Assembly: GCA_964647565.1 (NCBI GenBank)
Contig: CAZYIM010000014.1
Span: forward strand, 1-59,641
Direction: 5' to 3'
DNA from: an uncultured Methanosarcinales archaeon
GTDB lineage: Archaea; Nanobdellota; Nanobdellia; Woesearchaeales; CAZYIM01
DNA length: 59,641 nucleotides
The notes under the pieces are model-generated. The model saw only the letters and a program-made list of their open reading frames with translations, did no database searches and was not told where the DNA came from. Positions 12,285-54,985 of this stretch are shown here, one piece after another (the first letter of the stretch is position 1; every line of letters begins with the position of its first letter). A program made the position numbers and the translations under genes.

Positions 12285-12285
12285 A

Positions 12286-13014: not shown

Positions 13015-13015
13015 C

Positions 13016-13750: not shown

Positions 13751-13758
13751 CATACAAA

Positions 13759-15461: not shown

Positions 15462-15463
15462 AA

Positions 15464-21197: not shown

Positions 21198-22093
21198 TAA
21201 ATGCAGGAACAGGCAAGAAACCGAGAAGGAAGAAGCGGGAGTTTCCACAGACTCCAAAGCACACTGAAGAATATGAACATCATGCTTTTGGGGCTTATGT
21301 CAATCCTGTCTATAACTATTATGTTTCCCCAGGGATAGTTGACGAACTTAAGAAGCTATTTAGCCTCTATAAAGATGCGTTTGATCGTGATTCCATTCTT
21401 GAGAATCTTACCATTGATAAGCTTACTATTTTAAACAAAGAAGCAAAGAACTCCCAGAAAATTAAAAAGAGATTTACTGGCTTCCCTATTAATGAGGGCT
21501 ATATCAAGAATAGGGACTTACTGGGCAGGTTATTATCCAACCTGTTTATCGATGCTGAATATTTCAAATATGAACGGGAGCATTTCGTTAAGGAACAAAA
21601 ATCAAAATTCAGAAATATGACAATTTCCGATGAATTTTTCCGTCCTATTGCGTATACCATTATGCCTAAATCTTCCCACTCTGAGATTGAGATGGTCAAC
21701 CTTACATTGCCAAATCATCACAATGGGACTTTTCCCTATGGCAAGTTGAATAATGGTCTTAAAAAGAAGCATTTCATTCAAAGAGGATATCATCCAGAAG
21801 CTTTTGCACTTGAGATACTTTTCCGGAGAGCAGGTCCTAAAAAAGAGAGAAAAGGATTGCTAATCCCTTTGACAAGCTGTGATTCAAGAATACCTGATGA
21901 AGAAAGAGAGCATTCAGGCCATCTTTTTGCTGTGACCTATGTTCCCTTTATCAAGTTTGGAAAAGGGAGGGAAGTGGTCGGAAGCAAGGTCATCTCACAC
22001 TATTACAACATATATGATTATGCGAACAATTACGAACAGGGAATAAGGATTGCAATACGGACAAGAAGGATATATCATCCAGGTGGAAAATGA
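21185..22093 (+). CDS. Array paralog 28 (302 aa)
   Basis: Leader AGTGKKPRR; core GLLIPLTSCDSRIP..GHLF. Confidence 0.9.
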   Translation: MDKIINAGTGKKPRRKKREFPQTPKHTEEYEHHAFGAYVNPVYNYYVSPGIVDELKKLFSLYKDAFDRDSILENLTIDKLTILNKEAKNSQKIKKRFTGFPINEGYIKNRDLLGRLLSNLFIDAEYFKYEREHFVKEQKSKFRNMTISDEFFRPIAYTIMPKSSHSEIEMVNLTLPNHHNGTFPYGKLNNGLKKKHFIQRGYHPEAFALEILFRRAGPKKERKGLLIPLTSCDSRIPDEEREHSGHLFAVTYVPFIKFGKGREVVGSKVISHYYNIYDYANNYEQGIRIAIRTRRIYHPGGK

Positions 22094-23193
22094 AGAAGAA
22101 ATACATCAATGACAAGGATAAAGGACAAAAGAACATTTTCAATTCTGTGTCAGATCGTATTAATTCCTTAAATACCCGCTTGTATGAGATAGACAAAGAT
22201 GCTGCGAGAAAGGCGGCAGAGGCGGATTATAAAGTCCAAAAAAGAATGTATCAACTTGATGAGAAGATCAATAAAAAGATGTATGATCTTGAACATAAAA
22301 TTCAAGAGACTTATAAAACCGGTTATATCAAGTCTCCTACTGGTAAAAAAATAGTTAATAAGATATTGCATTCTTTGAAAAAGAAGAAAAAAGACAAACC
22401 TGAAATCATCCACAAACCAGAAAGTGGCAGGAAACCAAGACGAGTCAGAAAGCTATTCAAGCCAAAAGATTTTGGAGTGACTGAATGGAAAAAGATTGAT
22501 TTCGGCGCTTATGTGTCTCCATATCATGGCAGGGATTTTTACAACACTTTTAGGAGAACTCATAATAAAATACTTGATTCAATAGGCCAATTTTCTGAAG
22601 ATAAAATCAATTGGGACACTAATATCATAACAGCATCTTATGGTGATATGAGACTATCTGATCTTTTCTTCAATCTTTTTGAGAACGGTAAATTCAGTAC
22701 TGGTACCCGAGGAAGGTACTATCAACATCAACATAACATTCAAAGTTACGGCAAAATGCGTAAGCATCCCAAAACAGTTCAATTTCTAAGATTGATAGAA
22801 CCGCCTTCTTTCCCTCAGATTGAGATGGTCACTATTTCGGTTCCACAACCCAAATATAAGAAGTTTAGATATATCAATGATCCAGATATACATCACAATG
22901 ATTACCTAGATGAACTTCATGTCATTCCAGATGTGTTTTCACTTGAAGTAATGTTCAAGGGAGAAGGACCTAAAAAAGAAAAGAGAGGGTTGGTGTTTCC
23001 TTTATCTGGTAAGGATTCAAGAATTCCTGAACAAGAAGAATCAAGATTAATAGGAGATTTCTTTTTTGTAAGCTATCAAAAGAAGAGAGTGTATACAGAG
23101 TATCATAATGTCTATAATTACTTTGAAAGTTTGGAGGAAGGAATTATTGCAGCTATCAACCATAAACGATTCTACAGAGGTCTGAATGAGTGA
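22090..23193 (+). CDS. Array paralog 29 (367 aa, helical N-terminal extension of about 105 aa)
   Basis: AGGTG RBS plus ATGA overlap; leader PESGRKPRR near residue 110; body close to 31. Confidence 0.9.
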   Translation: MKKKYINDKDKGQKNIFNSVSDRINSLNTRLYEIDKDAARKAAEADYKVQKRMYQLDEKINKKMYDLEHKIQETYKTGYIKSPTGKKIVNKILHSLKKKKKDKPEIIHKPESGRKPRRVRKLFKPKDFGVTEWKKIDFGAYVSPYHGRDFYNTFRRTHNKILDSIGQFSEDKINWDTNIITASYGDMRLSDLFFNLFENGKFSTGTRGRYYQHQHNIQSYGKMRKHPKTVQFLRLIEPPSFPQIEMVTISVPQPKYKKFRYINDPDIHHNDYLDELHVIPDVFSLEVMFKGEGPKKEKRGLVFPLSGKDSRIPEQEESRLIGDFFFVSYQKKRVYTEYHNVYNYFESLEEGIIAAINHKRFYRGLNE

Positions 23194-23980
23194 ACTAATC
23201 GATGCAGGAAGCGGGAAGAAAAAGAAGAGACTTAAGTCTGTTCGTGATGATTTGAAGCGAAACGGCATGGAACAAGTCTTAGAAGGTAGCAATAAGATTA
23301 CAGATATAAAACCCGTCAAGGAATTAGGATGGGTAAGTCCATATTGGCACAAGCACAGAATCGATGCAGACCTTGAAAGGCTTAAGAAAAAGAGTCTAAA
23401 AAAAAATAAAGTGAAATTCATAAAACCGCTTAAAGGAACATTTGGTGACCTTATGAAAGGTTATATCAATTTAGATAAAGTAGTTTATGATCTCTTTAAT
23501 GGCAGCAATTATATCGTTAATAAGAAAATAAAGCAAGAACATTCAATACATATTTTTAGCGAGATACCACAATTGCCTGAAGTTGAAATTGCTTATTTAT
23601 TCCAGGATAGAGTTTATTTTGAAAAAAGCACATGGAAATTAGGCCTTCCAGTCAAACCTGGCAAATTGAAATATAGAGCAGATCCGGCTGCCTATAATCT
23701 GAATGTGATATTAAAACCTGGAAAATATCCATACAGAATCGGTATTTCTATCCCCTTGATCAAGGATATCTCATTTTTTAATAAATTTGCGACTGAGGAA
23801 AAAATACCTAAACAAGCTGTTGGTCTCCTTTCTAAAGCCTATGCTCATACCATCATCCAGCAATTCTTTGAAACTGAAGTTGTTGAGAGGTATGGGAATG
23901 GATTCTATAGTGCAAACGGAATAAAAAATGGGATATTGGCACAAATAAGAGGTGTGAATTTTATCCAAAACTTAAAATGA
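23186..23980 (+). CDS. Array paralog 30 (264 aa)
   Basis: Leader DAGSGKKKK; IPQLPEVEIAYLF; close to 73. Confidence 0.9.
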   Translation: MSELIDAGSGKKKKRLKSVRDDLKRNGMEQVLEGSNKITDIKPVKELGWVSPYWHKHRIDADLERLKKKSLKKNKVKFIKPLKGTFGDLMKGYINLDKVVYDLFNGSNYIVNKKIKQEHSIHIFSEIPQLPEVEIAYLFQDRVYFEKSTWKLGLPVKPGKLKYRADPAAYNLNVILKPGKYPYRIGISIPLIKDISFFNKFATEEKIPKQAVGLLSKAYAHTIIQQFFETEVVERYGNGFYSANGIKNGILAQIRGVNFIQNLK

Positions 23981-24762
23981 CTATGATAATCGATGCAGGA
24001 AGCGGGAAGAAGCCAAGAAGGCGAAAGAAGCTATTCATGCCTAATTCTTTTGGCATGACTGAGTGGCTGCCTGAGGAGTTTGGCGCTAGTATGTCTCCTT
24101 ATCATGATAGGGATTATTATAATCATTTCAAAGATGATAATGAAAAATTTCTTGATTCTATGGACCTGTTTTCTACAGATGAGATCGATTGGAATTGTGA
24201 AATACGTCTCGGGTGTTATACTTCTATAAAAATTTCTGAACTTTTCTTTAATTTGTTTAAGGGTGGTAAGTTCAGGCAGGGAATTCGAAGAAAATACTAT
24301 GATAATCAATACTTTCCCCGAAGTTCATTACGCCTTTCAGAAATCCCTGAAACTGTTCAGTTTTTGTCTTTGGTTGATCCTCCTGCTTTTCCTCATGTTG
24401 AGATGGTCAGCATTTCAGTTCCAAGACCAAATTATTTCTGGCAAACCTATCTTAATGATCCAGAAATTGATGATAACTACTTTAAAACATGGTTGTATGT
24501 TTCTCGTGATGTTTTTTCTCTTGAGGTGATGTTCAAGGGTAAAGATCTAAAAAAGCCGAGAAAGGGATTGGTATTTCCTTTAACAAACAAGGACTCTAGA
24601 GTGCCTGAATCAGAACAACGAATTTTGACTGGGAATTTCTTTGCTGCAACCTATCAAAAAAAGAAAGTGTTTACAGAATTTCATAATATCAATAAATACT
24701 TCAGTGGTCCAACAAAAGGCATGATTGCTGCTATAAACCACAAAAGGTTTTACGAGGTCTGA
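23977..24762 (+). CDS. Array paralog 31 (261 aa)
   Basis: Leader DAGSGKKPRR; shares DVFSLEVMFKG..GLVFPL with 29. Confidence 0.9.
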   Translation: MTMIIDAGSGKKPRRRKKLFMPNSFGMTEWLPEEFGASMSPYHDRDYYNHFKDDNEKFLDSMDLFSTDEIDWNCEIRLGCYTSIKISELFFNLFKGGKFRQGIRRKYYDNQYFPRSSLRLSEIPETVQFLSLVDPPAFPHVEMVSISVPRPNYFWQTYLNDPEIDDNYFKTWLYVSRDVFSLEVMFKGKDLKKPRKGLVFPLTNKDSRVPESEQRILTGNFFAATYQKKKVFTEFHNINKYFSGPTKGMIAAINHKRFYEV

Positions 24763-25548
24763 ATGAATAAATTAATCGATGCAGGAAGCGGGAAGATCAA
24801 GAAGATCAGAAAGGTCACACAGATAGATGACAGGACGTTGGAAGAGTTCAATATAAAGCTGCCTTGGGGAGACAGAATCTTCAATATGCATGATCTTGGA
24901 AAAGATCTGGATAAGATGATCAAGGATGCCAAGAATGGATTTGATCAGGAAAGTACTGAATGGATAGGATCAACCAATATTGAGAATCTGCATGAAATGG
25001 AAGTCATACGTCCTGACATGATCTATGTCGAGACCATGGCTATGATGATGTTCTACAAGAACAGGACATATTCAGTGAAATCCAAAAACTTCCAGACTAG
25101 ATTTGTCGAACCTAAAGGTTATGATAATATTGACCTGATAACCCATGCATATCCCTCTCCTAGATTGATAGACCAGCTGATTAACTATGAAGAACTAGCA
25201 TCGCAATTCAATGAGAATGTGCATCAGATGGGCTTGTTTATTTATTTGAAAAAGAAGAAAAAAGAGAACAGGAAAGCTATCTATGTACCCATGTTTAGTT
25301 ATGATTCAATAGTTCCGAAATCTCAACGTAACCAGAAATACCACATATTCATGCTTGAGTTTGTCTCTGATCCCGGCTATTCTCCCCCTTGGAAGGATCC
25401 TTATCACACATATATCAATGCCAAGTACATCGGAATATACAACTTTTGGAGCCATTTTTCAAAAGGGCTGGAACAGGCCATAGAGCAATACGGAAAAGGA
25501 AAAACACATTCATTTACAAATGGAACACAAAGCACAGGACCCAAATAG
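24763..25548 (+). CDS. Array paralog 32 (261 aa)
   Basis: Leader DAGSGKIKK; core IYVPMFSYDSIVP..HIF. Confidence 0.9.
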   Translation: MNKLIDAGSGKIKKIRKVTQIDDRTLEEFNIKLPWGDRIFNMHDLGKDLDKMIKDAKNGFDQESTEWIGSTNIENLHEMEVIRPDMIYVETMAMMMFYKNRTYSVKSKNFQTRFVEPKGYDNIDLITHAYPSPRLIDQLINYEELASQFNENVHQMGLFIYLKKKKKENRKAIYVPMFSYDSIVPKSQRNQKYHIFMLEFVSDPGYSPPWKDPYHTYINAKYIGIYNFWSHFSKGLEQAIEQYGKGKTHSFTNGTQSTGPK

Positions 25549-26326
25549 AGAACTAATCCAAGCAGGAAAAGGAAAGAAGCCTAGAAGAGTTAGGAAACCA
25601 TTCCCTGACAAGCCTATTAGTGAGGGCTATATCAAGAACAAGGACCTGAAGTTGTTTAATCCAGTTGAACCTGGTGAAGAAAGACCCTTTGAGATTCTTG
25701 AAGCCATTCATGGTTTTGGCCAGGGCAAGCTTCTAGAAAGAGGTTCGATATCAAGCAGAGTGAAATATGCAGGAAGAGGATTAGAATCAAGTTTCTATAG
25801 GATAAGCAATGTTGTTGAAAACCTGTTTGAAGGCGGGTACTATATTTCATATTTGAGCCAGAAGGTAAAATCCAATAAAATCATCAAGGGTGTAAAAGAA
25901 CCCGGTCTGATGACATATAGCATTACATCTGCTCCAGCATTTCCACAGGTTTTGTTGGCTCAACTCAAGGTACCCAATTTCAATGATGATATAGTCACAT
26001 TCAACAACACTGGTTTAGAAAAGAATGCCATCAAGAAACTTTATCAGATAGATCCGAACAATATCTGTTTGAGTGTTATATTTTCAAATGATAAATATAA
26101 AGCAGAACGTAGATGGATGCGAGGTCTGCTATTGCCTTTGACATCCCAGGATACAAGATTCTCTGAAGAATTCCAAAAAAGAACTGGCAATCTTCTCGTA
26201 TTGAGATACATGCTCCCCTCAGTGCATTACTGGCTCAACAACATCTTTGACTATTGCTCTGACCTGACTGAAGGTTTGAGGATAGCGCTCAACACAAAAA
26301 GAAACTACGAACCTCGAGGTAGCTAA
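25520..26326 (+). CDS. Array paralog 33 (268 aa)
   Basis: Leader QAGKGKKPRR; core GLLLPLTSQDTRF. Confidence 0.88.
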   Translation: MEHKAQDPNRELIQAGKGKKPRRVRKPFPDKPISEGYIKNKDLKLFNPVEPGEERPFEILEAIHGFGQGKLLERGSISSRVKYAGRGLESSFYRISNVVENLFEGGYYISYLSQKVKSNKIIKGVKEPGLMTYSITSAPAFPQVLLAQLKVPNFNDDIVTFNNTGLEKNAIKKLYQIDPNNICLSVIFSNDKYKAERRWMRGLLLPLTSQDTRFSEEFQKRTGNLLVLRYMLPSVHYWLNNIFDYCSDLTEGLRIALNTKRNYEPRGS

Positions 26327-27114
26327 TGACAGAAAAACTAATCAAAGCTGGACCTGGAAAGATAAAGAAGAAACGAAGGAATCTAAAAGTAGATCTGAAA
26401 TGTAATAATTTCCGAAATTCTAATATTAACACGTTTTTTCTAAGACAGATAAGAGGGAATCGTTCTGAGGGAAGACATTATCTGATGCCTGACCCTTCTG
26501 AACAAATTATTCGATATATCAATGATTTAGATCAGCCATTTGAATCCATTCAAAAAGAGATGAATAACGATTTTATACGAATAACATCTTTGACTGGTTC
26601 AGACTTTATGCGGTTAGATAATGTTGTTGAGAATATCTTCAAAAAATCTGAGGTCTCAATAACACACATTAAACATAGTAAATATTATCTTATTGGTAAA
26701 ATCAAGCAATATCCAAATATACATTATGCTGTTTTGAAGATCCCTTCTGCAGATTATTTAGAAGAGATAATACCTGAGAAAAGGTTTCATGCATCTGAGA
26801 AGAACAAGGTATCATTACTAAAGCAACTTTCATTCAAAATCAAATTCAAGCAAGGACTTGAAGATCCTAATAAACAAAACGGTCTGGTAATTTTCCAATC
26901 ATGTAAAGCCTCCAAGCTGGCAAATAAAACAGGATACTTGTCTTGGGATGATAACCACTATTCAAAGTATTTGGATAAACCAGTTAGTCATGTCATTTCC
27001 ACGTTTTACAGGGATAATAAAATCTATAGCCATTATTTGAATGGTTATTATGATACTAAGACTTTGGAAGATGGATTAAGACAATCAATAATGGAAATCT
27101 CTAAGGAAATGTAA
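26326..27114 (+). CDS. Array paralog 34 (262 aa)
   Basis: TAATG overlap; leader KAGPGKIKKK; close to 37. Confidence 0.9.
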   Translation: MTEKLIKAGPGKIKKKRRNLKVDLKCNNFRNSNINTFFLRQIRGNRSEGRHYLMPDPSEQIIRYINDLDQPFESIQKEMNNDFIRITSLTGSDFMRLDNVVENIFKKSEVSITHIKHSKYYLIGKIKQYPNIHYAVLKIPSADYLEEIIPEKRFHASEKNKVSLLKQLSFKIKFKQGLEDPNKQNGLVIFQSCKASKLANKTGYLSWDDNHYSKYLDKPVSHVISTFYRDNKIYSHYLNGYYDTKTLEDGLRQSIMEISKEM

Positions 27115-27120
27115 AAAACA

Positions 27121-27867
27121 ATGAAACAAAAAATAATCGATGCAGGAAGCGGGAAAAAGCCAAGAAGAATAAGGAAGATTACTGGCTGGTATGAGGGTGA
27201 AGTATTCCATAAATTTTCAGAGTATTCAGATGTGCAATCGTTGACAGGGGAGAAGACATGGCATCCCTTTGATATGTATGAAAAGATGATTCGAAAAACT
27301 AAACGCGAGATCAAGTTAAAAGGCAAGAATGATACAGTTCCAAAAATCAAATTGCATCCTGATTTCAATACAAAAAACCACGAGTTTGTAAGGATTGATT
27401 ATATTGCCAAGTTTTTTGCGGTTAATACCAAGCACACTGTTGTTAGTCATGATAGTTTTTTAAGCTTTGCTATGGATGAGAAAAATGAAAAATCAAATGT
27501 TGACCTGGTGAGATTGATGATTCCATATGAAAGTACGACGCCCCAACAATTGACACAAAATTTCAATGCAGGGCCTATCAGGGGAGCTATTGATCCTAAT
27601 CTCTTAGGTTTGTACATCTATCTGAAGAAGAAAGAAGATACTACAAGGACATGTCTGGTTGTGCCAATGTGCAAGAATCATAGAAATATAATCAAGCAGG
27701 TCAGCCATGTTTATGGTCATGTATTGATGCAGGATTGGATCTCGAGAAAAGACGAGGATTATGACCAATCCATTGTCAAATACCAAGGCGTATATGAGAA
27801 CAATTACAAACTGATTAACGGCCTTGCAAAGGCCTTAGGTGATTATGGATATGATATGTTAAAATGA
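27121..27867 (+). CDS. Array paralog 35 (248 aa)
   Basis: Leader DAGSGKKPRR; RTCLVVPM..YGH; close to 38. Confidence 0.9.
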   Translation: MKQKIIDAGSGKKPRRIRKITGWYEGEVFHKFSEYSDVQSLTGEKTWHPFDMYEKMIRKTKREIKLKGKNDTVPKIKLHPDFNTKNHEFVRIDYIAKFFAVNTKHTVVSHDSFLSFAMDEKNEKSNVDLVRLMIPYESTTPQQLTQNFNAGPIRGAIDPNLLGLYIYLKKKEDTTRTCLVVPMCKNHRNIIKQVSHVYGHVLMQDWISRKDEDYDQSIVKYQGVYENNYKLINGLAKALGDYGYDMLK

Positions 27868-28679
27868 CTGAACTAATCAAGGCAGGAAGCGGGAAAAAGA
27901 AAAAAAGAATGAAGAAAAAGATTAAGATAGTTGGCAGTGGGATCATACGGCTTGAAGATTTCAATCATATAATCAAAAACGAGGCTGAAAAACTAGGATT
28001 TATCGATGTTTTCCATAATGGTTATGAAATTTCAAAACGAGCGAGGATAATAAAGGATGAGGGTGTTGTCAGGCAGGATGATTTTTTTGAAGAGGTAATG
28101 TATTTCATGGGGATGCAAAAAAATAAGCTTAACCTAATAAAAAAAGATGTCAGATTCTTCAACCTCTCTGAACTTGCTGATCTTATGAGTTTCAGCTATA
28201 AAACGAATACGCAGATAGAACATAAGAAGCTAAGAAAGTATCTTTTTACAGATCTTGATAATTACCCTGAAATAGAGCTGATCGAGTTAAATATACCGCA
28301 TGTGACCAAGAGAACATTAAAATCAAGGATGAAAGGAGGTCTTGAATGGACTTATAGCCGTAATATTCACAGTGTCTTCAAGGAAAAATACCCAGTTGAA
28401 AACTTCACAATGCAGATCATATTCAATCAAAATAAATTAACCCTTTATCAAAAATCTATAAATGAGTTCGATGATAGATATGCTGTCAGTCTTCTTATAC
28501 CCATGTTCAACAGTGACAGGAGGATATCTGACCAGTTGAGAAATAAAGAAGCTAATATATTTGTACTGTACCATTATCAAAACTACACCAAGATCAAATA
28601 CTATGATGTCTGCGACTCAAAGGGGGACCTTGAGAAAAAACTGAAAACAGCAATAAAAAATTACGGAATAAGAAAATGA
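27864..28679 (+). CDS. Array paralog 36 (271 aa)
   Basis: Leader MTELIKAGSGKKKK; SLLIPMFNSDRRI; close to 39. Confidence 0.9.
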   Translation: MTELIKAGSGKKKKRMKKKIKIVGSGIIRLEDFNHIIKNEAEKLGFIDVFHNGYEISKRARIIKDEGVVRQDDFFEEVMYFMGMQKNKLNLIKKDVRFFNLSELADLMSFSYKTNTQIEHKKLRKYLFTDLDNYPEIELIELNIPHVTKRTLKSRMKGGLEWTYSRNIHSVFKEKYPVENFTMQIIFNQNKLTLYQKSINEFDDRYAVSLLIPMFNSDRRISDQLRNKEANIFVLYHYQNYTKIKYYDVCDSKGDLEKKLKTAIKNYGIRK

Positions 28680-29458
28680 CTGAACTAATCAAGGCAGGAA
28701 GCGGGAAAAAGAAGAAAAAGAGAAGGACATTAAAGTCTAATCTAAGACTGGAAAAATATTCTAATTCAGATATTGAAAAACATTTTGCTAACAGGATAAG
28801 AGGGTCTAATCTGGGCAAGGCAGAAGAGATCCTTAATGATACTTTTTTCAAGATTAACGTACCAATGAAAATTCTTGGTGGGGATTATGAGGAGAACAAG
28901 GCTTCGATCAATACCACTGCCAATAGGATTAGTGAAATTCTGGGAACTGATTTCATAAGACTGGATACTGTGATGGACAATCTATTCAAGGATCAGGATA
29001 TTGCGAAATTCAACAAATATGACACAGATTATTATCTAATGTCCAAGATTAAAGAGTTTCCATCTATTATGGTCATGATGCTGACGCTTCCATCTGATTC
29101 ATATCTGGATAAGAAATCTATAAACAAAGGCAAGCTAGATGATCATGGCAAGGCTGGATTAATAAGCAATGTTAGTCTGAATATACTATTCAACAAAAAA
29201 CCTGATGAAGAAAAATATAGCAATGGGCTGCTTGTTGTCCAGACATCTAACGCATCAAATCTGCAAATGAGAAAAAAACCAAAGGATGGAGCTCCTTACT
29301 CTGGGAACCTGGATGTTCCGATAAGCCATCTTTTGCATATTTACAGGAAAAATGACAAGATCGATACTAGCTATCAGGATGGCTTTTTTAATATTTTAAC
29401 ACTCGAACAAGGATTGAGAAAAAGTATTGATAAATTCGGATGTGACCATAAAAAATGA
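28676..29458 (+). CDS. Array paralog 37 (260 aa)
   Basis: Leader MTELIKAGSGKKKK; GTDFIRLD and LDVPISH match 34. Confidence 0.9.
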   Translation: MTELIKAGSGKKKKKRRTLKSNLRLEKYSNSDIEKHFANRIRGSNLGKAEEILNDTFFKINVPMKILGGDYEENKASINTTANRISEILGTDFIRLDTVMDNLFKDQDIAKFNKYDTDYYLMSKIKEFPSIMVMMLTLPSDSYLDKKSINKGKLDDHGKAGLISNVSLNILFNKKPDEEKYSNGLLVVQTSNASNLQMRKKPKDGAPYSGNLDVPISHLLHIYRKNDKIDTSYQDGFFNILTLEQGLRKSIDKFGCDHKK

Positions 29459-30192
29459 CTGAACTAATCAAGGCTGGGAGCGGGAAGATAAAGAAAAAAA
29501 GAAAGCTAAATGGCTTTTATGACAGGAAAGGTTTCAGGAGTTTTGAATATTATTGGACATGGGATAAATGGGAAGCGGGAAATACCCATATGCCCTTCAA
29601 TAGTCTTGATAATCATATTGCTAGATTAAAAATTCGATTAGGTTTAAAATCTAAAAATGAAAAAATTGATTTCCTGAGTTATCATAAAAATTTTAGTGAT
29701 CCTAAGTGTGGATTTGTAGATCTATATCATCTTATCAGTCCTTGGCTTGTAGAATCTAAGGTGGTTATTGACGAAAAAAACAATCTTATCAGTTATGCAG
29801 TCCGAGGTGGCTTTGACAGCTCGAAAATAGATATTGTGACAATGAACAATCCTTCTGCCAATATTACACCTAATGAGTTAGCCAAAGCAATTGAAGCCTT
29901 TCCTTCAAAAGAAGGCATCAATCCAGAGTTGTTAACCCTGAACTTTTATCTCAAAAAGAATAGACATGATAGAACCTGCTTGGTTGTTCCGATGAGCAAT
30001 AAACATCCAGATGTTATAGAACAGCTAAGTCATCATTACGGTCATATCCTGATAAAGACTTACACTGAAAGCGTGCCTGATTGTGATGCTTTTCTAACGA
30101 CCAGATACTATGGAGTTTATAGAAATATGCATAAACTATGGATGGGCCTATCAAATGCAATATGTGATTGTAACAAGGAAATAATCAAATGA
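29455..30192 (+). CDS. Array paralog 38 (245 aa)
   Basis: Leader MTELIKAGSGKIKK; RTCLVVPM matches 35. Confidence 0.9.
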   Translation: MTELIKAGSGKIKKKRKLNGFYDRKGFRSFEYYWTWDKWEAGNTHMPFNSLDNHIARLKIRLGLKSKNEKIDFLSYHKNFSDPKCGFVDLYHLISPWLVESKVVIDEKNNLISYAVRGGFDSSKIDIVTMNNPSANITPNELAKAIEAFPSKEGINPELLTLNFYLKKNRHDRTCLVVPMSNKHPDVIEQLSHHYGHILIKTYTESVPDCDAFLTTRYYGVYRNMHKLWMGLSNAICDCNKEIIK

Positions 30193-30983
30193 CTGAACTA
30201 ATCAAGGCTGGAAGCGGGAAAAAGAAGAAAAAAGCTAAGATAAAGGTCAAGGTAGATGGCAAGCTGATAAGATTGGCTGATTTTAATCATAGGATTGATG
30301 ATCACAATGAATTATGGGGAACCTCTAACGTAGACAAGCAATATTCTACAATTTCAGAACGCGCATATTTTGTTAGGACCAATGGTTTTGTAAGACAGAA
30401 TGATTATGGAGAGGAAGCTGCTTATTTTAACATAATTAAAGGCATAAAACCTGATTTTGTGAATTTATGTTCCTTTGCAGATGTGATGAGATTTTCATTT
30501 GATAAGAATATGCTGATTGAGAGTAAAACAACAAGATTCTATGCATTTGCAGGCTTGAAGGATTATCCAGAGATAGAATTAATCGAGCTTAGGATTCCCT
30601 TTGTAAAGAAAAAGATGCGACAATCTGTGATTAAAGGAGGCTTGGCATGGAACTATCATGAATACCTGGTTCCGGGAGTGTTCAATGGAAAGACACAAGT
30701 GGAGGATTATTCTTTGCAGATAATATTTTCTCCGATGCAGACAGCATTATTCCACCGTTCAATAGGCGAACCCGAACCGGATTATAAGACCAGTCTCCTA
30801 ATACCTATGTTCAATTCAGATAAAAGAATACCTGAAGTCTTAAGGAAAAAAGAAGGCCACATATTTGTATTTAATAATTATGAAACACATTCAAAACTTA
30901 GCTATTATGATGTGGCTGACACGATGAAGACTCTAGAGACCAAGCTAAAGACAGCTATAAAAAACTATGGAATGAGAATATGA
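30189..30983 (+). CDS. Array paralog 39 (264 aa)
   Basis: Leader MTELIKAGSGKKKK; YPEIELIEL and SLLIPMFNSD match 36. Confidence 0.9.
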   Translation: MTELIKAGSGKKKKKAKIKVKVDGKLIRLADFNHRIDDHNELWGTSNVDKQYSTISERAYFVRTNGFVRQNDYGEEAAYFNIIKGIKPDFVNLCSFADVMRFSFDKNMLIESKTTRFYAFAGLKDYPEIELIELRIPFVKKKMRQSVIKGGLAWNYHEYLVPGVFNGKTQVEDYSLQIIFSPMQTALFHRSIGEPEPDYKTSLLIPMFNSDKRIPEVLRKKEGHIFVFNNYETHSKLSYYDVADTMKTLETKLKTAIKNYGMRI

Positions 30984-31753
30984 AAGAACTAATCGAAGCA
31001 GGACCTGGCAAGATAAAGAAAAAGAGACGGGTAGATAATATTCCCTATTCAGTCTTCATGGAAGGAGTCATTGATCTTAATAAGAGGACCTTGGGATTGA
31101 TCAATCCATTCAAGCAGCAAAAATATGTGAACAGGTTAGCCTATAAACTAGACGTGGATGGGGAGATCCTTCCCCAAGGATTTGGCCCTGTTAATTTCAC
31201 ATTCAAAGTCTCAGATAGGTCTGAAAAGAAGATAGGAGAGATTTTAAATCCGTTCAAGGGCGGTAAATACGATGTAAATCTTAATGATGGAGATTATATT
31301 TTTACCACAATGTATGTACCGAGATACCCTGGTATTGAGTTAGTCCGGATGAAAATTGCATCGTTCAATCCAGGCCCGATAAACAGTGAAGAGAGAGATA
31401 AGAAATATTGGTTAAAATCTGCACATCAGGCGCCTCTTCCAGATGACATGACGCTTTTCATCCTATTCAAAAAATTGCTTCCTGAAGCACACATCAGATA
31501 TGGATTGATGCTGCCCCTGACCATATGTGACTCTGCATTGCCTGAAAATCTAGATCATAACTATGGCCATGCTATCGAGATCCAGTTTTCCAAACTATAC
31601 CGCCATAAAGAGTATATTGTTCATGGAAAATATTTCAACTTTTATGATTTTTCAAGCTCATTTGAGAACGGGCTCAAGATTGCACTTAATCATCATGAAA
31701 AGATGTTCAGAACTAATCAACCGACTTACGAGGAAGCTATCAAAAAGACATAA
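30980..31753 (+). CDS. Array paralog 40 (257 aa)
   Basis: Leader EAGPGKIKKK; DDMTLFILFKK; close to 42. Confidence 0.9.
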   Translation: MKELIEAGPGKIKKKRRVDNIPYSVFMEGVIDLNKRTLGLINPFKQQKYVNRLAYKLDVDGEILPQGFGPVNFTFKVSDRSEKKIGEILNPFKGGKYDVNLNDGDYIFTTMYVPRYPGIELVRMKIASFNPGPINSEERDKKYWLKSAHQAPLPDDMTLFILFKKLLPEAHIRYGLMLPLTICDSALPENLDHNYGHAIEIQFSKLYRHKEYIVHGKYFNFYDFSSSFENGLKIALNHHEKMFRTNQPTYEEAIKKT

Positions 31754-31758
31754 ATAAT

Positions 31759-31775
31759 GTTTCAGGTGGAATATG
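31759..31775 (+). promoter_or_regulatory. Intergenic motif GTTTCAGGTGGAA(A)TATG containing an RBS; second copy near 33341-33358
   Basis: Same motif in both ~20-bp gaps, following the related paralogs 40 and 42. Confidence 0.7.
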
Positions 31776-32582
31776 AAAGAAAAACTAATCGAAGTAGGAA
31801 GTGGAAAAAAGAAGAAAATCGCAAAGGCTGTTAAGAAAAAAGCTAGTTTGATGACTCGAGTCAAATGGTGTACATCTTATGAGCTGTATTATATGGATGC
31901 TTTTGATTTAAGCGGTCGATTGCAATGGATCGCACCGTTTTATACTACTAATACTTTCTATAATAAATTCGATAAAATTGAAAATAGCAGAACTGGAAAT
32001 CCACTTTATATTGCCCATCCAGAAAGGTACAATTTGGATGTTGGGGTTAATGCATCCCATGAACCGCCTGCGATAGAATTTATTGTGAATGATCTTCTTA
32101 AGGTTTCCAAAACAGTTAATATTACATATAAAAACCATTCTGTCTTGTTAATCAAGCCTTCAGAACAATATCCAAAAATAAAATACGCAGTTTTTTGCAG
32201 CGATTCTCAAATTATTAAAAATTCGGAAAACAATAACATAGAAAGACGTTATTATCCAATCCTCAATATTATTTTTTACAATGCTAAAGGATTATTTGTT
32301 GTTATGAATGACATGATTTCAGCTCAAGAAATATTCTCCGAAGGCTTTTTCAAGAAGGAAAAAAACATTCCCTTAATACAGAATCATCCCTATAGTATAT
32401 TTCATATCAAAAGGATGTCTGCACCACCTTCGATAGACTGTATTAATTCATATTCAGATTATCAATCCTTGCAAAAAGGAGTAAATAATGCTGTAAAAAA
32501 GTACGGAGGTACTAAGCAGCGAGCTGCTGGTACCTCGAAAAATAAAACATATTTTGGAGGTAAGAAATGGTATCCGTTTTAG
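31773..32582 (+). CDS. Array paralog 41 (269 aa, divergent core)
   Basis: AGGTG RBS; leader EVGSGKKKK; YPKIKYA, LNIIF and SLQKGVNNAVKKYG retained. Confidence 0.85.
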   Translation: MKEKLIEVGSGKKKKIAKAVKKKASLMTRVKWCTSYELYYMDAFDLSGRLQWIAPFYTTNTFYNKFDKIENSRTGNPLYIAHPERYNLDVGVNASHEPPAIEFIVNDLLKVSKTVNITYKNHSVLLIKPSEQYPKIKYAVFCSDSQIIKNSENNNIERRYYPILNIIFYNAKGLFVVMNDMISAQEIFSEGFFKKEKNIPLIQNHPYSIFHIKRMSAPPSIDCINSYSDYQSLQKGVNNAVKKYGGTKQRAAGTSKNKTYFGGKKWYPF

Positions 32583-33334
32583 AAGATCCAATTCCAGCAC
32601 CTTCTGGCAGGAAGCCAAGAAGAACAAAGAAGATAGTTAAGATTCCAGACTCTGCCTTCAGAAAAGAGATCATTAACTTTGGCAAGAGACATTTTGGTTA
32701 TATCAACCCTTACAAGAAAGAGAAACAGCTTGAGAGAATCTTATCAAGGATTGATAGAGATGGGACTGAGATCAATGAAGATTTTCCAGACTATAATTTT
32801 GCCTACAAGGTTGCTAAAAACAAACAATTATCCATGAAAGAGCTTGTTTTGCCTTTGTTTGAGGGTGGAAAATATTCAGAATTTCGCTGGTCTGGAACCT
32901 ATGAGTTTTTATTCAAGGATATTGAAAGATACCCTAATATTGAGTTGGCTAAACTGATCCTGCCTGTATTCTGGGTTGGTCCTGTCAATGATGAGGCTAG
33001 GAGTGAGAAAGACTGGCGAGGCGCCCACAAGGCTCCGTTAATTGATGATATGACCTTATTCATCCTTTTCAAGAAAGTGCCCAAAGATATCAAGATAAGA
33101 TACGGCATCATGGTCCCATTGACATATTGTGATCCCCGTATACCTGAGGATCCAAAATACAGCTATGGACATGCAGTTGAAATGCAGTTCGTACAATCAC
33201 ACTTGGCCAGTGGACATTATTTCAATATATATGAATATTCGAAAGATTTTGTGAACGGAATGAAGATTGCAATAAGAAATTACGAAAGGTTGTTCAAAGA
33301 CAAAAATATCAGGATTCCTTTTGCAAGGATTTAA
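32567..33334 (+). CDS. Array paralog 42 (255 aa)
   Basis: GGAGGT RBS; leader APSGRKPRR; core VPLTYCDPRIP..YGHA. Confidence 0.9.
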   Translation: MVSVLEDPIPAPSGRKPRRTKKIVKIPDSAFRKEIINFGKRHFGYINPYKKEKQLERILSRIDRDGTEINEDFPDYNFAYKVAKNKQLSMKELVLPLFEGGKYSEFRWSGTYEFLFKDIERYPNIELAKLILPVFWVGPVNDEARSEKDWRGAHKAPLIDDMTLFILFKKVPKDIKIRYGIMVPLTYCDPRIPEDPKYSYGHAVEMQFVQSHLASGHYFNIYEYSKDFVNGMKIAIRNYERLFKDKNIRIPFARI

Positions 33335-33355
33335 AATTAAGTTTCAGGTGGAAAT

Positions 33356-34138
33356 ATGAAAGAGAAATTAATAGATGCCCCTAGCGGCAAGAAGAAGAAG
33401 CGTCCAAAGTCACTCAGGGCTGCTTATCGTAAGTTAAATGTCGTTTCACAAGAAGATTATAGACAGAGGACTAAGGATTTTAATCCGGGAATTGTATTAG
33501 ACATCAAAACCCACATGGATATGTACAAGCAGCGTATCAAGCTAAGAGTGTCCGGTAAAAGAATGAAGCAAGGCGCTCTTTCTGGTTTGCAATGCTTCCA
33601 GCCAGAGGTTCTTGAAAAATATGGCTTTACAAGGCTTGATCTGCTTGTTGAAAAGGTATTCAAGGGATCTAGATTCATTATAAATTCAACGCCTTCAATG
33701 ATTGAATATATAATTGCTCCAACCATATTCAACCATACTTCAACATCCATGGCCTATTTACGATTGCCTCAGGTGGAAACTGTTACTGACGGAAAAGACT
33801 ACAAGATTCTTGAAAACACCAACCAATGTGTTTTGAATGTCATGATAAAGCCATTTACACACTGGTCTACGCATCGAAACAGTTATATTATTCCATTGGA
33901 TGCAAAGGATGCCCTATCTCCCAAGAAAAAAGATTTTGATGGTAAAGTTCGAAAAGCAGGGCATGACAGGGATTTCTATGCCCATCTATTGCTTGCTGCT
34001 ATTGATACTGATAAAGGTTCTATAAAATATGAATACGCTGACGGCTTCTATTCCTACAAGGGTCTGGAAGCTGGATTCATTAATGTAATGCACGTGCTCG
34101 GAGGTCTTAATCTGTATGTCCCAAAAAAACGTGATTGA
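33356..34138 (+). CDS. Array paralog 43 (260 aa)
   Basis: AGGTG RBS; leader APSGKKKK; related to 57 and 59 (IPLDAKD, FYAH). Confidence 0.9.
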   Translation: MKEKLIDAPSGKKKKRPKSLRAAYRKLNVVSQEDYRQRTKDFNPGIVLDIKTHMDMYKQRIKLRVSGKRMKQGALSGLQCFQPEVLEKYGFTRLDLLVEKVFKGSRFIINSTPSMIEYIIAPTIFNHTSTSMAYLRLPQVETVTDGKDYKILENTNQCVLNVMIKPFTHWSTHRNSYIIPLDAKDALSPKKKDFDGKVRKAGHDRDFYAHLLLAAIDTDKGSIKYEYADGFYSYKGLEAGFINVMHVLGGLNLYVPKKRD

Positions 34139-34886
34139 TGCTGGAAGCGGGAAGAGAAAGAAGATGAAGAAAGCAGATAGAGTTATCCAAGCTGGTGGTG
34201 AAGAGGTTTTGCTTTCTAACTATGTAAAACGCTTTTTACCTCATGAGCATGATTATGGAAACCGCAAGCTGCTTGATCAGCAGATGCTGGAGATCGTCAG
34301 GGAAGAAGGCACGATCATGAAAAAAGGCAGGATAGATACCAATGCATTCTTTTATGAGCATCCTGAATCTTATGACAATCACCATTTTACTCGTGTTGAC
34401 AAGCTGGTCACAGAACTGTTCATAGGCTGCAAGGGTTATTTTGATTCTGTGGCTTATAATCTGAACCTTGCAAGATACAAATTATATATTGCTGATGTTC
34501 CTGGATTTCATAATGTTGAAATGGCAGTGCTCACATTCCCATCAAACTTACATCCTGCCAATATGCTTGAAAGAAGCATTTTCTATAATGAAACTACAGA
34601 TCTCTTTCCTATGGATGCAGATGAACTGGGTCTGCATGTGCTCTTCAAGAAAGAAAAGAATGATAAGGGCTATAGAAAAGGATTATTTGTTCCGTTTGCA
34701 AGGCCAGAAGACTTGGTTCTGCAAGAGCTCAAAGACAAGCACCATCTCTTCAATGTTTTTTATTATCCTAGCAATTATGTAATTGGCAAAGAAATGATGA
34801 TTTATGGATATGGCAATGTCTACAGCTTCTTCAGCCATCTCAAATTAGGTTTTACAGAAGCCATAAAATCGAGGGGGTTCAAATGA
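34116..34886 (+). CDS. Array paralog 44 (256 aa)
   Basis: GGAGGT upstream; leader DAGSGKRKK; core LHVLFKK..GLFVPF..HLF. Confidence 0.9.
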   Translation: MSQKNVIDAGSGKRKKMKKADRVIQAGGEEVLLSNYVKRFLPHEHDYGNRKLLDQQMLEIVREEGTIMKKGRIDTNAFFYEHPESYDNHHFTRVDKLVTELFIGCKGYFDSVAYNLNLARYKLYIADVPGFHNVEMAVLTFPSNLHPANMLERSIFYNETTDLFPMDADELGLHVLFKKEKNDKGYRKGLFVPFARPEDLVLQELKDKHHLFNVFYYPSNYVIGKEMMIYGYGNVYSFFSHLKLGFTEAIKSRGFK

Positions 34887-35611
34887 CAAAGATAACAGGT
34901 ATTGGAAAAAGGAAGAAAGAAGATAATAAACCTAAAGACGAAATAATCCTACACCCATTCACAGGAAGAAAACCCAGAAGGAAACTGAAGAAAGAGCTTC
35001 ATGGTATATTGCATCCTTTCAAGCACAAAGACTCCATCAAAGAAATTATCAACGAGATCGATGAGAAAAATCAATATTTTGGAGATAATACAGTTAATGA
35101 GAAGACATCTTTATTTGTGAAAGATTGGATAGGTAAAGAGCCGGTCGCAATGAAGGATCTGGCTTTCAAGATATTAGGATATGCTAAGTATCTAAGGTCG
35201 CATCAAAGTGTATACGTGAAATATTATGCAACAGAGCTACCCTATCTGTCCCAGGTGGAGCTTGCAATGTTAACAATTCCCCCAGGAAGTATTGTTGAAT
35301 GTTTGAATAGGAATGATAAGAAGACAAAAAGTATGTGGGGATTCATGCAGAATACCTTTTACAGGGAAGTTGAAGAGTTTACATTGAACCTTATCTTCAA
35401 GCAGTATAATCCTAAGAGTCGGAAAGCTAGAGGACTTCTCATACCTTTCTGCGCATGGGATAGCAGGATCTTGAAAAAACACCAGCGCCAGCTTGGCCAT
35501 GCATTCCTATTGACATACACACCAAAGAAAGTAGAATTCGAATATATCAACCTATACAATTATGCAGATTCTATTCCACAAGCAATTAATAACATAAACG
35601 AGGTAATGTGA
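34883..35611 (+). CDS. Array paralog 45 (242 aa)
   Basis: Two leader-like motifs (GIGKRKK, FTGRKPRR); core GLLIPFCAWDSRI..GHAF. Confidence 0.9.
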   Translation: MTKITGIGKRKKEDNKPKDEIILHPFTGRKPRRKLKKELHGILHPFKHKDSIKEIINEIDEKNQYFGDNTVNEKTSLFVKDWIGKEPVAMKDLAFKILGYAKYLRSHQSVYVKYYATELPYLSQVELAMLTIPPGSIVECLNRNDKKTKSMWGFMQNTFYREVEEFTLNLIFKQYNPKSRKARGLLIPFCAWDSRILKKHQRQLGHAFLLTYTPKKVEFEYINLYNYADSIPQAINNINEVM

Positions 35612-35612
35612 A

Positions 35613-36404
35613 ATGACTGAAAAAGATGACATAATCCATAACACTGAATCTGGCAGGAAGCCAAGGAGAAGACTCAAGGATGAGAAACAGCCAGAGAACA
35701 ACATGTGCCTGGATGCATTTTTGGGATCCCATAAAAATGAAGATAACAATCTTACAATGGCTCAGAGGGATGGATATCTTTGGTGCAGTTCCTTTAGGAC
35801 TATACTTAGATATAAACAGAATAAAGGTTTATCAGGAAATTTAGGCACAAACGTCATAGGCTATTGTCTATATTCTATTGGAGATGAGCTTAATGGGAAT
35901 AAGGAATCAGACATTCCTTTTGGTTCGATCCTTAATAATTTAGATAATAATTATTTAAGGCTCACAGAAAAAAGGGATACACACTATATTTGTTATTATT
36001 TGAATAACGCTAATATAGATGATAAAGACAGCCATGAATTTGCGTTTGCACGGGTAACTATACCTCGTGAAACAAATGAAGAGTTTCTCCTTGATGCTGC
36101 TGGTGGAGGGATTAAATATATTGAGAAGATTGAGCAGGACACTTACAATATGTATTTCTTTTTTTATAATAAAGAGGGGAAGATTTCTGATGAGGCGTTG
36201 TTTATCCCGCTGTTGAAGACTGATTCAAGGATCCCTGAAGATAAAAAATCTTTTGCAATGAACGGTTTCACTGCAACCTTGAAGAAATTTCCTTCATTTG
36301 AGATTGAATATCAACCGTATGTTCACGTAGTATCAGAACAAGGACTTTTGGCGTCGTTTAATGATATTGTAAAACACTTCAAAGGTGAACAGCTCGATGA
36401 CTAA
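35613..36404 (+). CDS. Array paralog 46 (263 aa)
   Basis: GAGGT RBS; leader MTEKDDIIHNTESGRKPRR; ALFIPLLKTDSRIP; trio with 47 and 48. Confidence 0.9.
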   Translation: MTEKDDIIHNTESGRKPRRRLKDEKQPENNMCLDAFLGSHKNEDNNLTMAQRDGYLWCSSFRTILRYKQNKGLSGNLGTNVIGYCLYSIGDELNGNKESDIPFGSILNNLDNNYLRLTEKRDTHYICYYLNNANIDDKDSHEFAFARVTIPRETNEEFLLDAAGGGIKYIEKIEQDTYNMYFFFYNKEGKISDEALFIPLLKTDSRIPEDKKSFAMNGFTATLKKFPSFEIEYQPYVHVVSEQGLLASFNDIVKHFKGEQLDD

Positions 36405-37370
36405 AATAATCGATAATCCCGAATCAGGCAGGAAGCCAAGGAGAAGACTCAAAGATGAGAAACAGCCAGAGAACAATATGTGCCTGGATGCTTTTCTGGA
36501 AGCCCATAAAACTGAAGATAACAATCTTACAATGGCTCAGAGGGATGGCTATCTCTGGTGTTCTTCATTCAGGAAGATACTTCAGACAAGAAATGAAATG
36601 AATTTACAAGGAAATACTGGATACAAAGAATTAGGATTTGGAATCTCTCCAATAATGGATGAGATCCACCGGTCCCCGAATTTGAACAATCCTAAAACCT
36701 TTGGAAAGATATGTGATTATTTTTACAATTTAGGACCTATATATTCAGAAAAACATGAGACATACTTTGAGTCCTATCAGATTAGAAGTGCACGTGAAAA
36801 GAAAGGTAAAAAATCACTTTTTGCATTTGCCAGAGGAAATCTGCCTCGAAATTTAAGATATGGACTAATAACAAATGCAGCAGGAGAAAAACAAAGATCC
36901 ATACAAGAGCTTGAGCAGGATACCTATAACTTTTATTTCTTTTTCTATAGAAAAGATGGTAGCATCTCTGATAGAGCACTGTTTATACCTATGCTAAATA
37001 CAGATGCAAGGATCCCTGAAGATAAAATGCATTATGGGCTTCTTGCCTTTTCTGCAACCTTGAAGAAGTTCCCAACATTGGAAATTGAATATGAATCACA
37101 TTCTGAGTGTCCATCTGACTATGACACTCTAAAACAGTTTAAAGGTATAATAAAGGAGTTCAGAGATGAAATTTGGGAGGAGACGATCAAATGACTGAAA
37201 TAATCGATAATCGAGAATCTGGCAGGAAGCCAAGGAGAAGACTCAAGGATGAGAAACAGCCAGAGAACAATTTCTGTATAGATGCTTATTTGGAATCAAA
37301 AAAACCAGAAGAAAACAATAAGACAATGGCTCAAAGGGACAGTTATATGTGGTGTTCATCCTTTCGAAAG
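35646..37370 (+). repeat. Three copies of a ~150-bp 5' block (starting 35646, 36421, 37215)
   Basis: gaatc.ggcaggaagccaaggagaagactcaa.gatgagaaacagccagagaacaa... shared by paralogs 46-48. Confidence 0.88.
36397..37194 (+). CDS. Array paralog 47 (265 aa)
   Basis: Start moved to MTKIIDNPESGRKPRR after AGGTGA; first ~55 aa nearly identical to 46. Confidence 0.9.
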   Translation: MTKIIDNPESGRKPRRRLKDEKQPENNMCLDAFLEAHKTEDNNLTMAQRDGYLWCSSFRKILQTRNEMNLQGNTGYKELGFGISPIMDEIHRSPNLNNPKTFGKICDYFYNLGPIYSEKHETYFESYQIRSAREKKGKKSLFAFARGNLPRNLRYGLITNAAGEKQRSIQELEQDTYNFYFFFYRKDGSISDRALFIPMLNTDARIPEDKMHYGLLAFSATLKKFPTLEIEYESHSECPSDYDTLKQFKGIIKEFRDEIWEETIK

Positions 37371-45237: not shown

Positions 45238-45275
45238 TAGGAGTATTAGATGAATATTTGGAATGATATAATAAA

Positions 45276-53970: not shown

Positions 53971-54070
53971 AACAGGACATTTTCTGGATCAGTGGGATGA
54001 AGAACTGACCTATCAGGACAAATGGGGGCAATGGCATTTTGAATCAGAAGTTGTGGATGATAAAAAATGA
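53207..54070 (+). CDS. Array paralog 68 (287 aa)
   Basis: Leader EAGSGKRKK; FCNIPRFMDIEIAY and GLLVPLTK shared with 67. Confidence 0.9.
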   Translation: MNEIIEAGSGKRKKRRKSLRGIFSDKILMNWDFRKEMQLHTNGTVHPNLERDLIKKQIRIMDKENNIFKRRWFDDERFFQKLTNDTSFVRVDKFIDQYFEGANFTVYGRIGHSYELQFCNIPRFMDIEIAYFSYPHIDNEYTLDYVLSKNHNEYFTFNILFKKEDAKKKNIVGLLVPLTKNDQRVPNYYSLNSELQEGRDFSFLDNSYAHILEMEYKRVDKAQWYHDGYFDHETFEEGLLKAINKHNKHIGRSVVTGHFLDQWDEELTYQDKWGQWHFESEVVDDKK

Positions 54071-54984: not shown

Positions 54985-54985
54985 A

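Follow-up and report, generated by a model that had tools for sequence, protein, structure and literature searches.

A short coding leader as the probable focus of homologous exchange in an archaeal array of divergent tandem paralogs

Introduction

Why do neighbouring genes from different subfamilies of a tandem family begin with nearly identical DNA, while their closest relatives in the same array begin differently? The question is raised by a 59,641-nucleotide contig (CAZYIM010000014.1, C14 in our numbering) from the genome assembly of an uncultured archaeon. This contig, analysed over its full length and called the window below, contains only a head-to-tail series of 75 co-directional paralogous open reading frames (ORFs) of 193–367 amino acids (about 250 amino acids). 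Each carries a leader of about 55 nucleotides (nt), which encodes the motif xxIIx(A/E/P)(G/E)SG and, directly after it, a stretch of basic residues (KKPRR, KIKKK, KKKKK or KRKKK). The leader is followed by a body that differs widely between genes. An earlier note on this DNA, whose gene numbers coincide with ours, had pointed to leaders common to different subfamilies, among them those of genes 36–39, and proposed position-dependent gene conversion. Our analysis indicates that leader-focused homologous exchange, comprising both gene conversion and unequal crossover, has probably shaped the array, a mechanism that we read from patterns in the sequence. The array itself is the first feature needed:

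1..59641, plus strand: tandem array of 75 paralogs, cut at both contig ends, with the leader motif in 75/75 genes

Results

Leaders and bodies follow different genealogies

The conflict between leader and body is illustrated by six consecutive genes:

26326..27867, plus strand: genes 34 and 35, body relatives of genes 37 and 38, with distinct leaders, MTEKLIKAGPGKIKK and MKQKIIDAGSGKKPRR
27862..27895, plus strand: leader 36 (gene at 27864–28679)
28674..28707, plus strand: leader 37 (gene at 28676–29458; its body relative is 34, not 36, 38 or 39)
29453..29486, plus strand: leader 38 (gene at 29455–30192; body relative 35)
30187..30220, plus strand: leader 39 (gene at 30189–30983; body relative 36)

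Genes 36–39 have a common leader, described by the degenerate 34-mer AAATGACTGAACTAATCAAGGCWGGRAGCGGGAA, which occurs four times in the window (at 27862, 28674, 29453 and 30187) and matches in 0 of 100 shuffles. As the earlier note had stated, these genes belong to three subfamilies. BLASTP comparison of the bodies links 36 with 39 (47% identity, 207 bits), 34 with 37 (30%, 122 bits) and 35 with 38 (30%, 121 bits), and the pairs 36–37, 36–38, 37–38, 37–39 and 38–39 give no match at E ≤ 1e-3. The leaders of these five unmatched pairs are nevertheless identical at 42–45 of 51 nt, and those of 36 and 39 at 45/51, whereas body relatives outside this cluster carry unlike leaders (33/51 for 34–37 and 30/51 for 35–38). 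Genes 36 and 37 have a 41-nt exact run in common (27861–27901 and 28673–28713), with leaders identical at 45/51 nt, a body identity of 25% at the amino acid level and a body synonymous identity of 22/52.

In the leader genealogy, 37 and 38 group with 36 and 39; in the body genealogy, 34 is the partner of 37, and 35 that of 38. Leader 35 resembles those of its upstream neighbours 30–32, and leader 38 those of 36, 37 and 39, although the bodies of 35 and 38 are mutually closest. Each leader has evidently come to resemble its surroundings. The identity among leaders 36–39 begins sharply 3–4 nt ahead of the ATG and ends between +10 and +20, so that both halves match in four consecutive leaders, which still differ at 2–3 synonymous sites. 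The flanking bodies have 22–31% amino acid identity (49% for 36–39), with synonymous identity at a baseline of 0.36–0.58.

Further leaders with long identical stretches lie elsewhere in the window:

1..55, plus strand: leader 1, exact run of at least 55 nt, identical to leader 5 at 2916–2970; cut by the contig start; bodies 27% identical
23197..23217, plus strand: 21-nt leader string of gene 30, repeated at 23988–24008 (gene 31), 24774–24794 (gene 32) and 27135–27155 (gene 35)
35646..35699, plus strand: leader 46, exact run of at least 54 nt, identical to leader 48 at 37215–37268; bodies 44% identical
51483..51513, plus strand: leader 66, 31-nt exact match to leader 67 at 52313–52343

The string common to genes 30, 31, 32 and 35, AATCGATGCAGGAAGCGGGAA, is present four times (starting at 23197, 23988, 24774 and 27135), with 0 copies expected. 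The 31-nt match between leaders 66 and 67 is bounded by differences on both sides, and their bodies have no BLAST match to each other. In the pair 7–9, the bodies are 25% identical and the leaders 46/51. The converse conflict also occurs: bodies that are 52% identical carry leaders identical at only 26/51 (29–31) and 31/51 (9–10). The observations of the earlier note are thus confirmed, but the coordinates given there cover only one cluster, that of genes 36–39, of a phenomenon that is found array-wide and on four other contigs.

Synonymous codons identify the similarity as copied DNA

For comparison of all 75 leaders, 17 codons were aligned on an anchor, the first K/R codon after SG. The conserved tract extends from about −33 to +25 nt around this anchor; outside it, identity is at a random level of ~0.28. 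The bodies are too diverged for whole-gene codon alignment at the DNA level. Our statistics comprised within-column synonymous shuffles, gene-order permutations and regression by the quadratic assignment procedure (QAP).

At positions where adjacent leaders have the same residue, the same codon is used in 406 of 637 cases (0.637), compared with a column-specific expectation of 0.51. When the codons of a column are exchanged at random between genes that have the residue in common, the mean is 0.511 ± 0.016, and the observed figure is attained in 0 of 2000 shuffles. The proposal that the identity resides at the DNA level and exceeds what codon bias would give is borne out by this result. Synonymous identity falls to 0.50 at a distance of 6–10 genes and lies at 0.46–0.50 beyond. 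It remains elevated between neighbours with unrelated bodies. For this purpose, bodies with at least 60 bits, own or upstream, were regarded as related, and such pairs were dropped from the filtered tests. Adjacent pairs with unrelated own bodies (<60 bits) reach 0.599 versus 0.517 after shuffling, the 41 adjacent pairs in which both own and upstream bodies are unrelated reach 0.607 versus 0.509, and pairs within five genes that fulfil the same double filter reach 0.546 versus 0.504 (0/2000 in each case). The comparison of leader synonymous identity with distance and body relatedness, as had been suggested before, shows decay with distance and an excess that persists where bodies are unrelated.

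The codons of the Ser-Gly core are also linked to each other. Of 55 leaders, 17 have the combination AGC-GGG and 11 have TCT-GGC (2/10000 permutations), while in the bodies AGC accounts for 17% of Ser codons and GGG for 12% of Gly codons. This linkage points to copied haplotypes rather than codon bias. Together with the shuffles, it identifies the similarity as copied DNA, for which independent codon choice is insufficient.

Leader similarity depends on proximity

Exact runs of at least 22 nt around the anchor connect 29 of 2775 leader pairs, and 27 of these 29 lie within five genes of each other, a range in which 360 pairs exist. Permutation of gene order places 3.8 long-run pairs on average, and at most 12, within this range, so that 0 of 10000 permutations reach 27. 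Once every long-run pair with a related own or upstream body is set aside, 14 of the remaining 16 are near neighbours (0/10000). In a QAP regression on leader identity, covering all pairs not involving gene 1, proximity has an effect (beta 0.16, 0/5000) that is independent of the body terms; the corresponding values are 0.152 for own-body similarity (0/5000) and 0.068 for upstream-body similarity (56/5000).

The same trend is seen on the other contigs of the array, which hold 36 further motif-bearing genes (four partial or degenerate genes were left out of the counts). Runs of at least 22 nt occur in 15 of 630 pairs of these genes, eight of them on the same contig within five genes. Another six join genes at the end of contig C68 (reverse strand) to genes at the start of C69; judging from this leader similarity, the two contigs may be directly adjacent at these ends.

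Duplication units end inside the leader

Part of the similarity between neighbouring leaders has a different origin, for which one leader serves as an example:

6634..6690, plus strand: leader 10, matching leader 11 (7409–7465) in its 5' half and in the DNA ahead of it; the match stops at the SG/K core

In the leader pairs 10/11, 30/32 and 50/51, similarity extends over the 3' end of the preceding gene, takes in the leader's 5' half and stops between SG and K of the core. The upstream bodies of these pairs are related (9 and 10, 52%; 29 and 31, 52%; 49 and 50, 46–48%), which indicates old duplication units that end inside the leader. A unit would comprise a body together with the 3' half of the leader ahead of it and the 5' half of the leader behind it, as expected from unequal exchange between two leaders. 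In agreement with such units, leaders of genes with related own bodies are 0.764 identical in their 3' half (baseline 0.478) and only 0.533 in their 5' half, and leaders with related upstream bodies are 0.551 identical in their 5' half (baseline 0.438). The polybasic type differs in 9 of 30 pairs with related bodies.

Similar leaders could in principle all have been inherited through duplication units offset from the gene boundaries, with no conversion at all. We regard this explanation as unlikely, even though it is the strongest of the alternatives. It fits 10/11, 30/32 and 50/51 exactly, and both the gain in 5'-half identity with related upstream bodies and the positive upstream term of the regression speak in its favour. 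The synonymous excess, however, survives the removal of related own and upstream bodies (0/2000), and the long-run pairs that remain are near neighbours in 14 of 16 cases. Co-duplicated leaders are also far more alike than the bodies that they accompany: leaders 30 and 32 agree in 10 of 11 codons, compared with 77 of 124 for bodies 29 and 31. Both halves match in the four consecutive leaders of 36–39 between bodies of 22–31% amino acid identity and baseline synonymous identity, and leaders 37 and 38 contradict the genealogy of their upstream bodies as well as that of their own. Co-duplication hence cannot explain the 36–39 cluster, and it also fails for 7/9 (leaders 46/51, bodies 25%), 66/67 and 30/31/35. 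The earlier proposal of position-dependent gene conversion is thus retained in so far as the similarity is at the DNA level, position-dependent and decoupled from body relatedness, but has to be restricted, as part of the neighbour similarity reflects co-duplication.

Constraint, site-specific recombination and assembly artefacts

A model without any DNA exchange would invoke strong purifying selection on the leader peptide and on the mRNA around overlapping stop and start codons, the latter for translational coupling. Consistent with it, the motif is kept in 75/75 genes, a leader-proximal ATG overlaps the preceding stop codon by 4 nt at 30 of 74 junctions, and some synonymous patterns are array-wide. 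Selection would, however, act on all copies equally, whereas the observed excess is neighbour-specific and decays with distance, and it extends to amino acid positions that vary freely between leaders. The model is further contradicted by the 15 of 75 genes that have no ATG within 16 codons of the motif core and by gene 29, in which the motif lies 136 codons into the ORF. We therefore give this model only a small chance of being correct.

Less probable still is a dedicated site-specific recombination system, integron- or shufflon-like, that targets the leader in order to insert or reshuffle bodies. The locus does resemble the substrate of such a system in that many ORFs are separated by a short conserved element and the mosaic boundaries coincide at a single position, the SG/K core. 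Yet the junctions contain neither hairpin nor inverted repeat (DNA folding z −1.28 to +0.73; 4 junctions, 6 strands), no recombinase is found in ~7.5 kb at the array start or ~7 kb at its end, the genes are all co-directional, the bodies form one family and the element is coding.

Last, an assembly or read-correction artefact that equalised similar leaders is highly improbable: although the genome was assembled from short metagenomic reads of modest depth, with the array in six contigs broken at repeats, contigs from a different assembler and four runs of two studies show 0 differences (the runs may include the source sample), one contig piece (29248–30813) bridges leaders 38 and 39, and an artefact would have drawn leaders towards the commonest type everywhere, not towards their neighbours, and would not be expected to leave the synonymous differences among 36–39.

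Observations that weigh against leader-focused exchange

Several results count against leader-focused exchange and were considered alongside the evidence for it. The neighbour similarity of 10/11, 30/32 and 50/51 is explained by co-duplication alone. At a distance of 2–3 genes, with own and upstream bodies unrelated, the synonymous excess is marginal (0.528 versus 0.503, 116/2000), and leader pairs are not independent, as the clusters 36–39, 30/31/32/35, 1/4/5 and 46–48 supply many of them. The haplotype GGAAGCGGGAA is spread over genes 25–74, with 17 occurrences, 16 of them in leaders; part of the DNA-level conservation is thus array-wide rather than local. A stretch of 35–55 nt is short for classical homologous exchange. 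No orthologous array in a sister genome was present among the genomes searched. Finally, the contigs from metagenome runs, which are of low depth (~4x), contained no polymorphism, donor/recipient pair or recombination junction, and they break at the 41-nt leader repeat (28703–28730).

These run contigs come from marine and seawater metagenomes of two studies in which the window sequence was matched. Two contig joints, 22394/30978 and 26651/38975, were not counted as recombination junctions, because only 20–21 letters lie on their short side, which makes them unreliable. The sole occurrence of GGAAGCGGGAA outside a leader is located in the body of gene 38 (29571–29581), ~90 nt past its own leader, and could be a matter of chance or a relic.

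Gene layout and properties of the leader peptide

An ATG is placed 7–16 codons ahead of the motif core in 60 of 75 genes, and the motif is mostly N-terminal. In gene 29 (22090–22500), and also in genes 12, 13, 20, 54–56 and 58, it is preceded by an N-terminal extension that places it 40–136 codons into the ORF, the value of 136 belonging to gene 29. The motif hence need not be at the N-terminus, unless an internal start codon is used in these genes. The median net charge of the ten residues that follow the Gly is +6. No signal peptide or membrane segment is apparent, with a 12-amino-acid window of mean hydropathy ≥1.6 near the leader in only 1/75 genes. A secretion signal of the Sec, Tat or lipoprotein type was rejected, since a hydrophobic core after the charged region is present in only 1/75 genes.

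Gene 66 is short, with 193 amino acids and a body of 176 (region 51490–52343). It is followed by a gap of ~160 nt (52072–52232), the sole sizeable non-coding gap in the window, downstream of which gene 67 carries a 38-codon extension ahead of its leader. Decay of a copy, or a deletion that left a scar, may underlie this arrangement.

Full extent of the array and its host genome

The assembly comprises 2.68 Mb in 86 contigs, with 38% G+C, a completeness of 86.9% and a contamination of 1.85%. Contigs C56, C68 and C69 are filled by the same family, which also occupies the first 2.2 kb of C36 (3–2166) and the first 4.25 kb of C1 (258–4254). The whole array amounts to ~115 genes and ~91 kb, or 3.4% of the assembly, split over six contigs at repeats. 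The 5' edge of the array is on C1, where a divergent HAD-type hydrolase gene adjoins it; at the 3' edge, on C36, an AIR-synthase-related gene follows. The cellular nature of these flanking genes on both contigs places the locus in the chromosome. In the ~7.5 kb scanned past the array start on C1, the genes encode a HAD hydrolase, an unknown protein, a metallophosphoesterase, another unknown protein, an AbrB/MazE-fold protein and a CBS-domain protein; neither here nor in ~7 kb beside the array end was a recombinase or integrase detected. The genome contains a full-length gene of the Rad51/RadA family (284.7 bits).

The assembly (2.68 Mb) exceeds in size each of the 40 nearest genomes searched, which belong to the same order only and range from 0.6 to 2.1 Mb. 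The collection searched held no representative of the same family or genus as the host genome.

Bodies form a divergent family with few outside homologs

All bodies belong to one superfamily. Alignment of the 75 sequences yields a 246-position profile with a conserved C-terminal pattern, GLxIP...D.R.P...H.F...Y...G..AI. Divergence within the family is high: even the most similar pair reaches only 53% identity, and a threshold of 100 bits splits the 75 bodies into 49 groups. A search of this profile against 1.84 billion representative proteins gave 114 matches at E ≤ 1e-3. The host genome accounts for 99 of these (≥96.6% identity), and the remaining 15 are outsiders, with 22–36% identity or no tblastn match.

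The family is absent from all 40 nearest relatives and from 400 further genomes sampled from the phylum, and is present as a single copy in 1 of 400 sampled genomes of the same order (G292). This copy is identical in sequence to the library protein P0111. At its locus (G292:C16:2937–5538), one neighbour is a small ORF that resembles a winged-helix regulator and the other an ORF that starts like a tyrosine-recombinase N-terminal domain, both judged by eye. Scans of metagenome contigs with the single proteins P0085 and P0112 returned no relative of either.

Homologs outside the host genome have no polybasic leader. Among P0079, P0085, P0096 and P0108, and also P0094 and P0100, several have other N-terminal motifs in common, either a doubled GGIxPC or TGHDxCMRPL. 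A conserved tag joined to a divergent body may thus be a trait of the family, with tags that are specific to each lineage.

Database searches gave no annotation for the family. Pfam contributed no usable match (one family in 1/75 members, E = 0.0093), a PHROGs scan of the 75 members gave three families, each in a single member at E ≥ 0.002, Rfam and ESM Atlas searches returned no family annotation, and a sequence profile search of the Protein Data Bank (PDB) had a best E-value of 0.14. An AlphaFold2 model of gene 36 (27858–28676) is confident, with a predicted local distance difference test score (pLDDT) of 84.8 and a predicted template modelling score (pTM) of 0.85. After 20 unstructured residues, it shows a domain of the alpha/beta type in which the sheet is antiparallel and the C-terminal helix long. 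No convincing neighbour was found for this model among solved structures, with a best Foldseek E-value of 0.027 and a best VIA-align Z-score of 4.5, which is below the noise level of that tool. A description of the family or the array was not found in the open-access literature.

Discussion

A recombination handle within a coding leader

We propose that the leader, as the sole remaining nucleotide similarity among more than 100 divergent tandem paralogs, would serve as the recombination handle of the array. Duplications and exchanges would break inside it, so that its 3' half would travel with its own body and its 5' half about as often with the upstream body. In addition, patches of 20–55 nt would be copied non-reciprocally between leaders a few genes apart, either by gene conversion via the archaeal RadA pathway or by replication template switching between close direct repeats. 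Such copying would homogenise neighbouring leaders across body subfamilies and keep them similar enough for further recombination, while occasional unequal exchange within the leader would duplicate or reshuffle bodies. Purifying selection on the leader peptide, which is predicted to be disordered, soluble and polybasic with a net charge of about +6, would set the outer limits of the tract.

In bacteria, exchange between short, close direct repeats falls off sharply as they lie further apart and can take place in the absence of RecA; for Sulfolobus, conversion tracts of very small length have been reported. Either RadA-type conversion or RecA-independent exchange between direct repeats would give the observed decay with distance. 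A single assembly does not allow conversion to be distinguished from replication template switching or from repeated crossovers; non-reciprocal copying is the most economical account of 36–39, 7/9, 30/31/35 and 66/67.

Relation to known systems

Judged from the sequence, the process is an unusual form of segment-restricted concerted evolution in a tandem family. As in partial gene conversion elsewhere, a short segment is homogenised among neighbours while the rest diverges, genealogies conflict and similarity decays with distance. Three hallmarks of concerted evolution are found here, namely an excess of identity in one segment beyond constraint and codon bias, genealogical conflict and dependence on proximity. 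The array differs from this class in its very short tract (20–55 nt), which coincides with an N-terminal peptide motif, in bodies of at most 53% amino acid identity and in its small-genome archaeal host. The combination is unusual: the coding tract is very short, the bodies have diverged to an extreme degree, the host is an archaeon, and the ~115 copies belong to an orphan family whose predicted fold is unmatched.

The closest likeness in architecture is with the internal-protein loci of T-even phages. In phage T4, diverse internal proteins have only a short N-terminal capsid targeting sequence in common (PMC3012670). The array differs from these loci in its chromosomal position with cellular flanks, in the lack of any PHROGs family in more than 1/75 members and in its ~115 genes of one fold family. 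The T4 targeting sequence also mediates recombination. An assignment as a phage internal-protein locus was rejected, given the cellular flanks and the three PHROGs families with one member each at E ≥ 0.002.

Chromosomal integron cassette arrays likewise combine a long co-directional series of ORFs with a short element that is more uniform than the ORFs. Here, in contrast, the element is coding and has no hairpin potential, the array edges scanned hold no integrase and the ORFs are all homologous. An integron cassette array was accordingly rejected, as no attC-like hairpin (z −1.28 to +0.73) and, in ~7.5 kb at the array start, no integrase was found. In silent-cassette loci such as vls, pilS and msp2, too, divergent copies occur in tandem in large number, and their recombinogenic ends are conserved. 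The copies described here differ from silent cassettes in being complete genes, with an ATG 7–16 codons before the core in 60/75 and many overlaps with the upstream stop codon, in keeping with translational coupling. Neither a single expression site nor a signal peptide or membrane segment is evident in the array, and a silent-cassette locus was rejected.

Possible function and significance

A more speculative reading, which we consider possible but doubtful, is that the array constitutes an undescribed type of archaeal cassette library. The polybasic leader would then be both a common address tag and the DNA handle by which bodies are duplicated, exchanged and kept on a working tag. Within this reading, the tag would serve in delivery, packaging or processing, perhaps directed toward the host cell of a presumed episymbiont. 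The differing N-terminal motifs of distant homologs, such as the doubled GGIxPC, hint that the tag may co-evolve with a lineage-specific partner.

Genomes of this archaeal group are, as a rule, small and streamlined, and the investment of ~3% of a 2.7-Mb genome in one lineage-specific tandem family is unusual. Such a share points to strong diversifying pressure, plausibly from cell–cell or virus–host interaction. The locus provides a clean natural case in which a very short coding segment would focus recombination and thereby preserve an architecture of tag plus variable body over the long term, and the leader offers an obvious experimental handle on the function of the tag.

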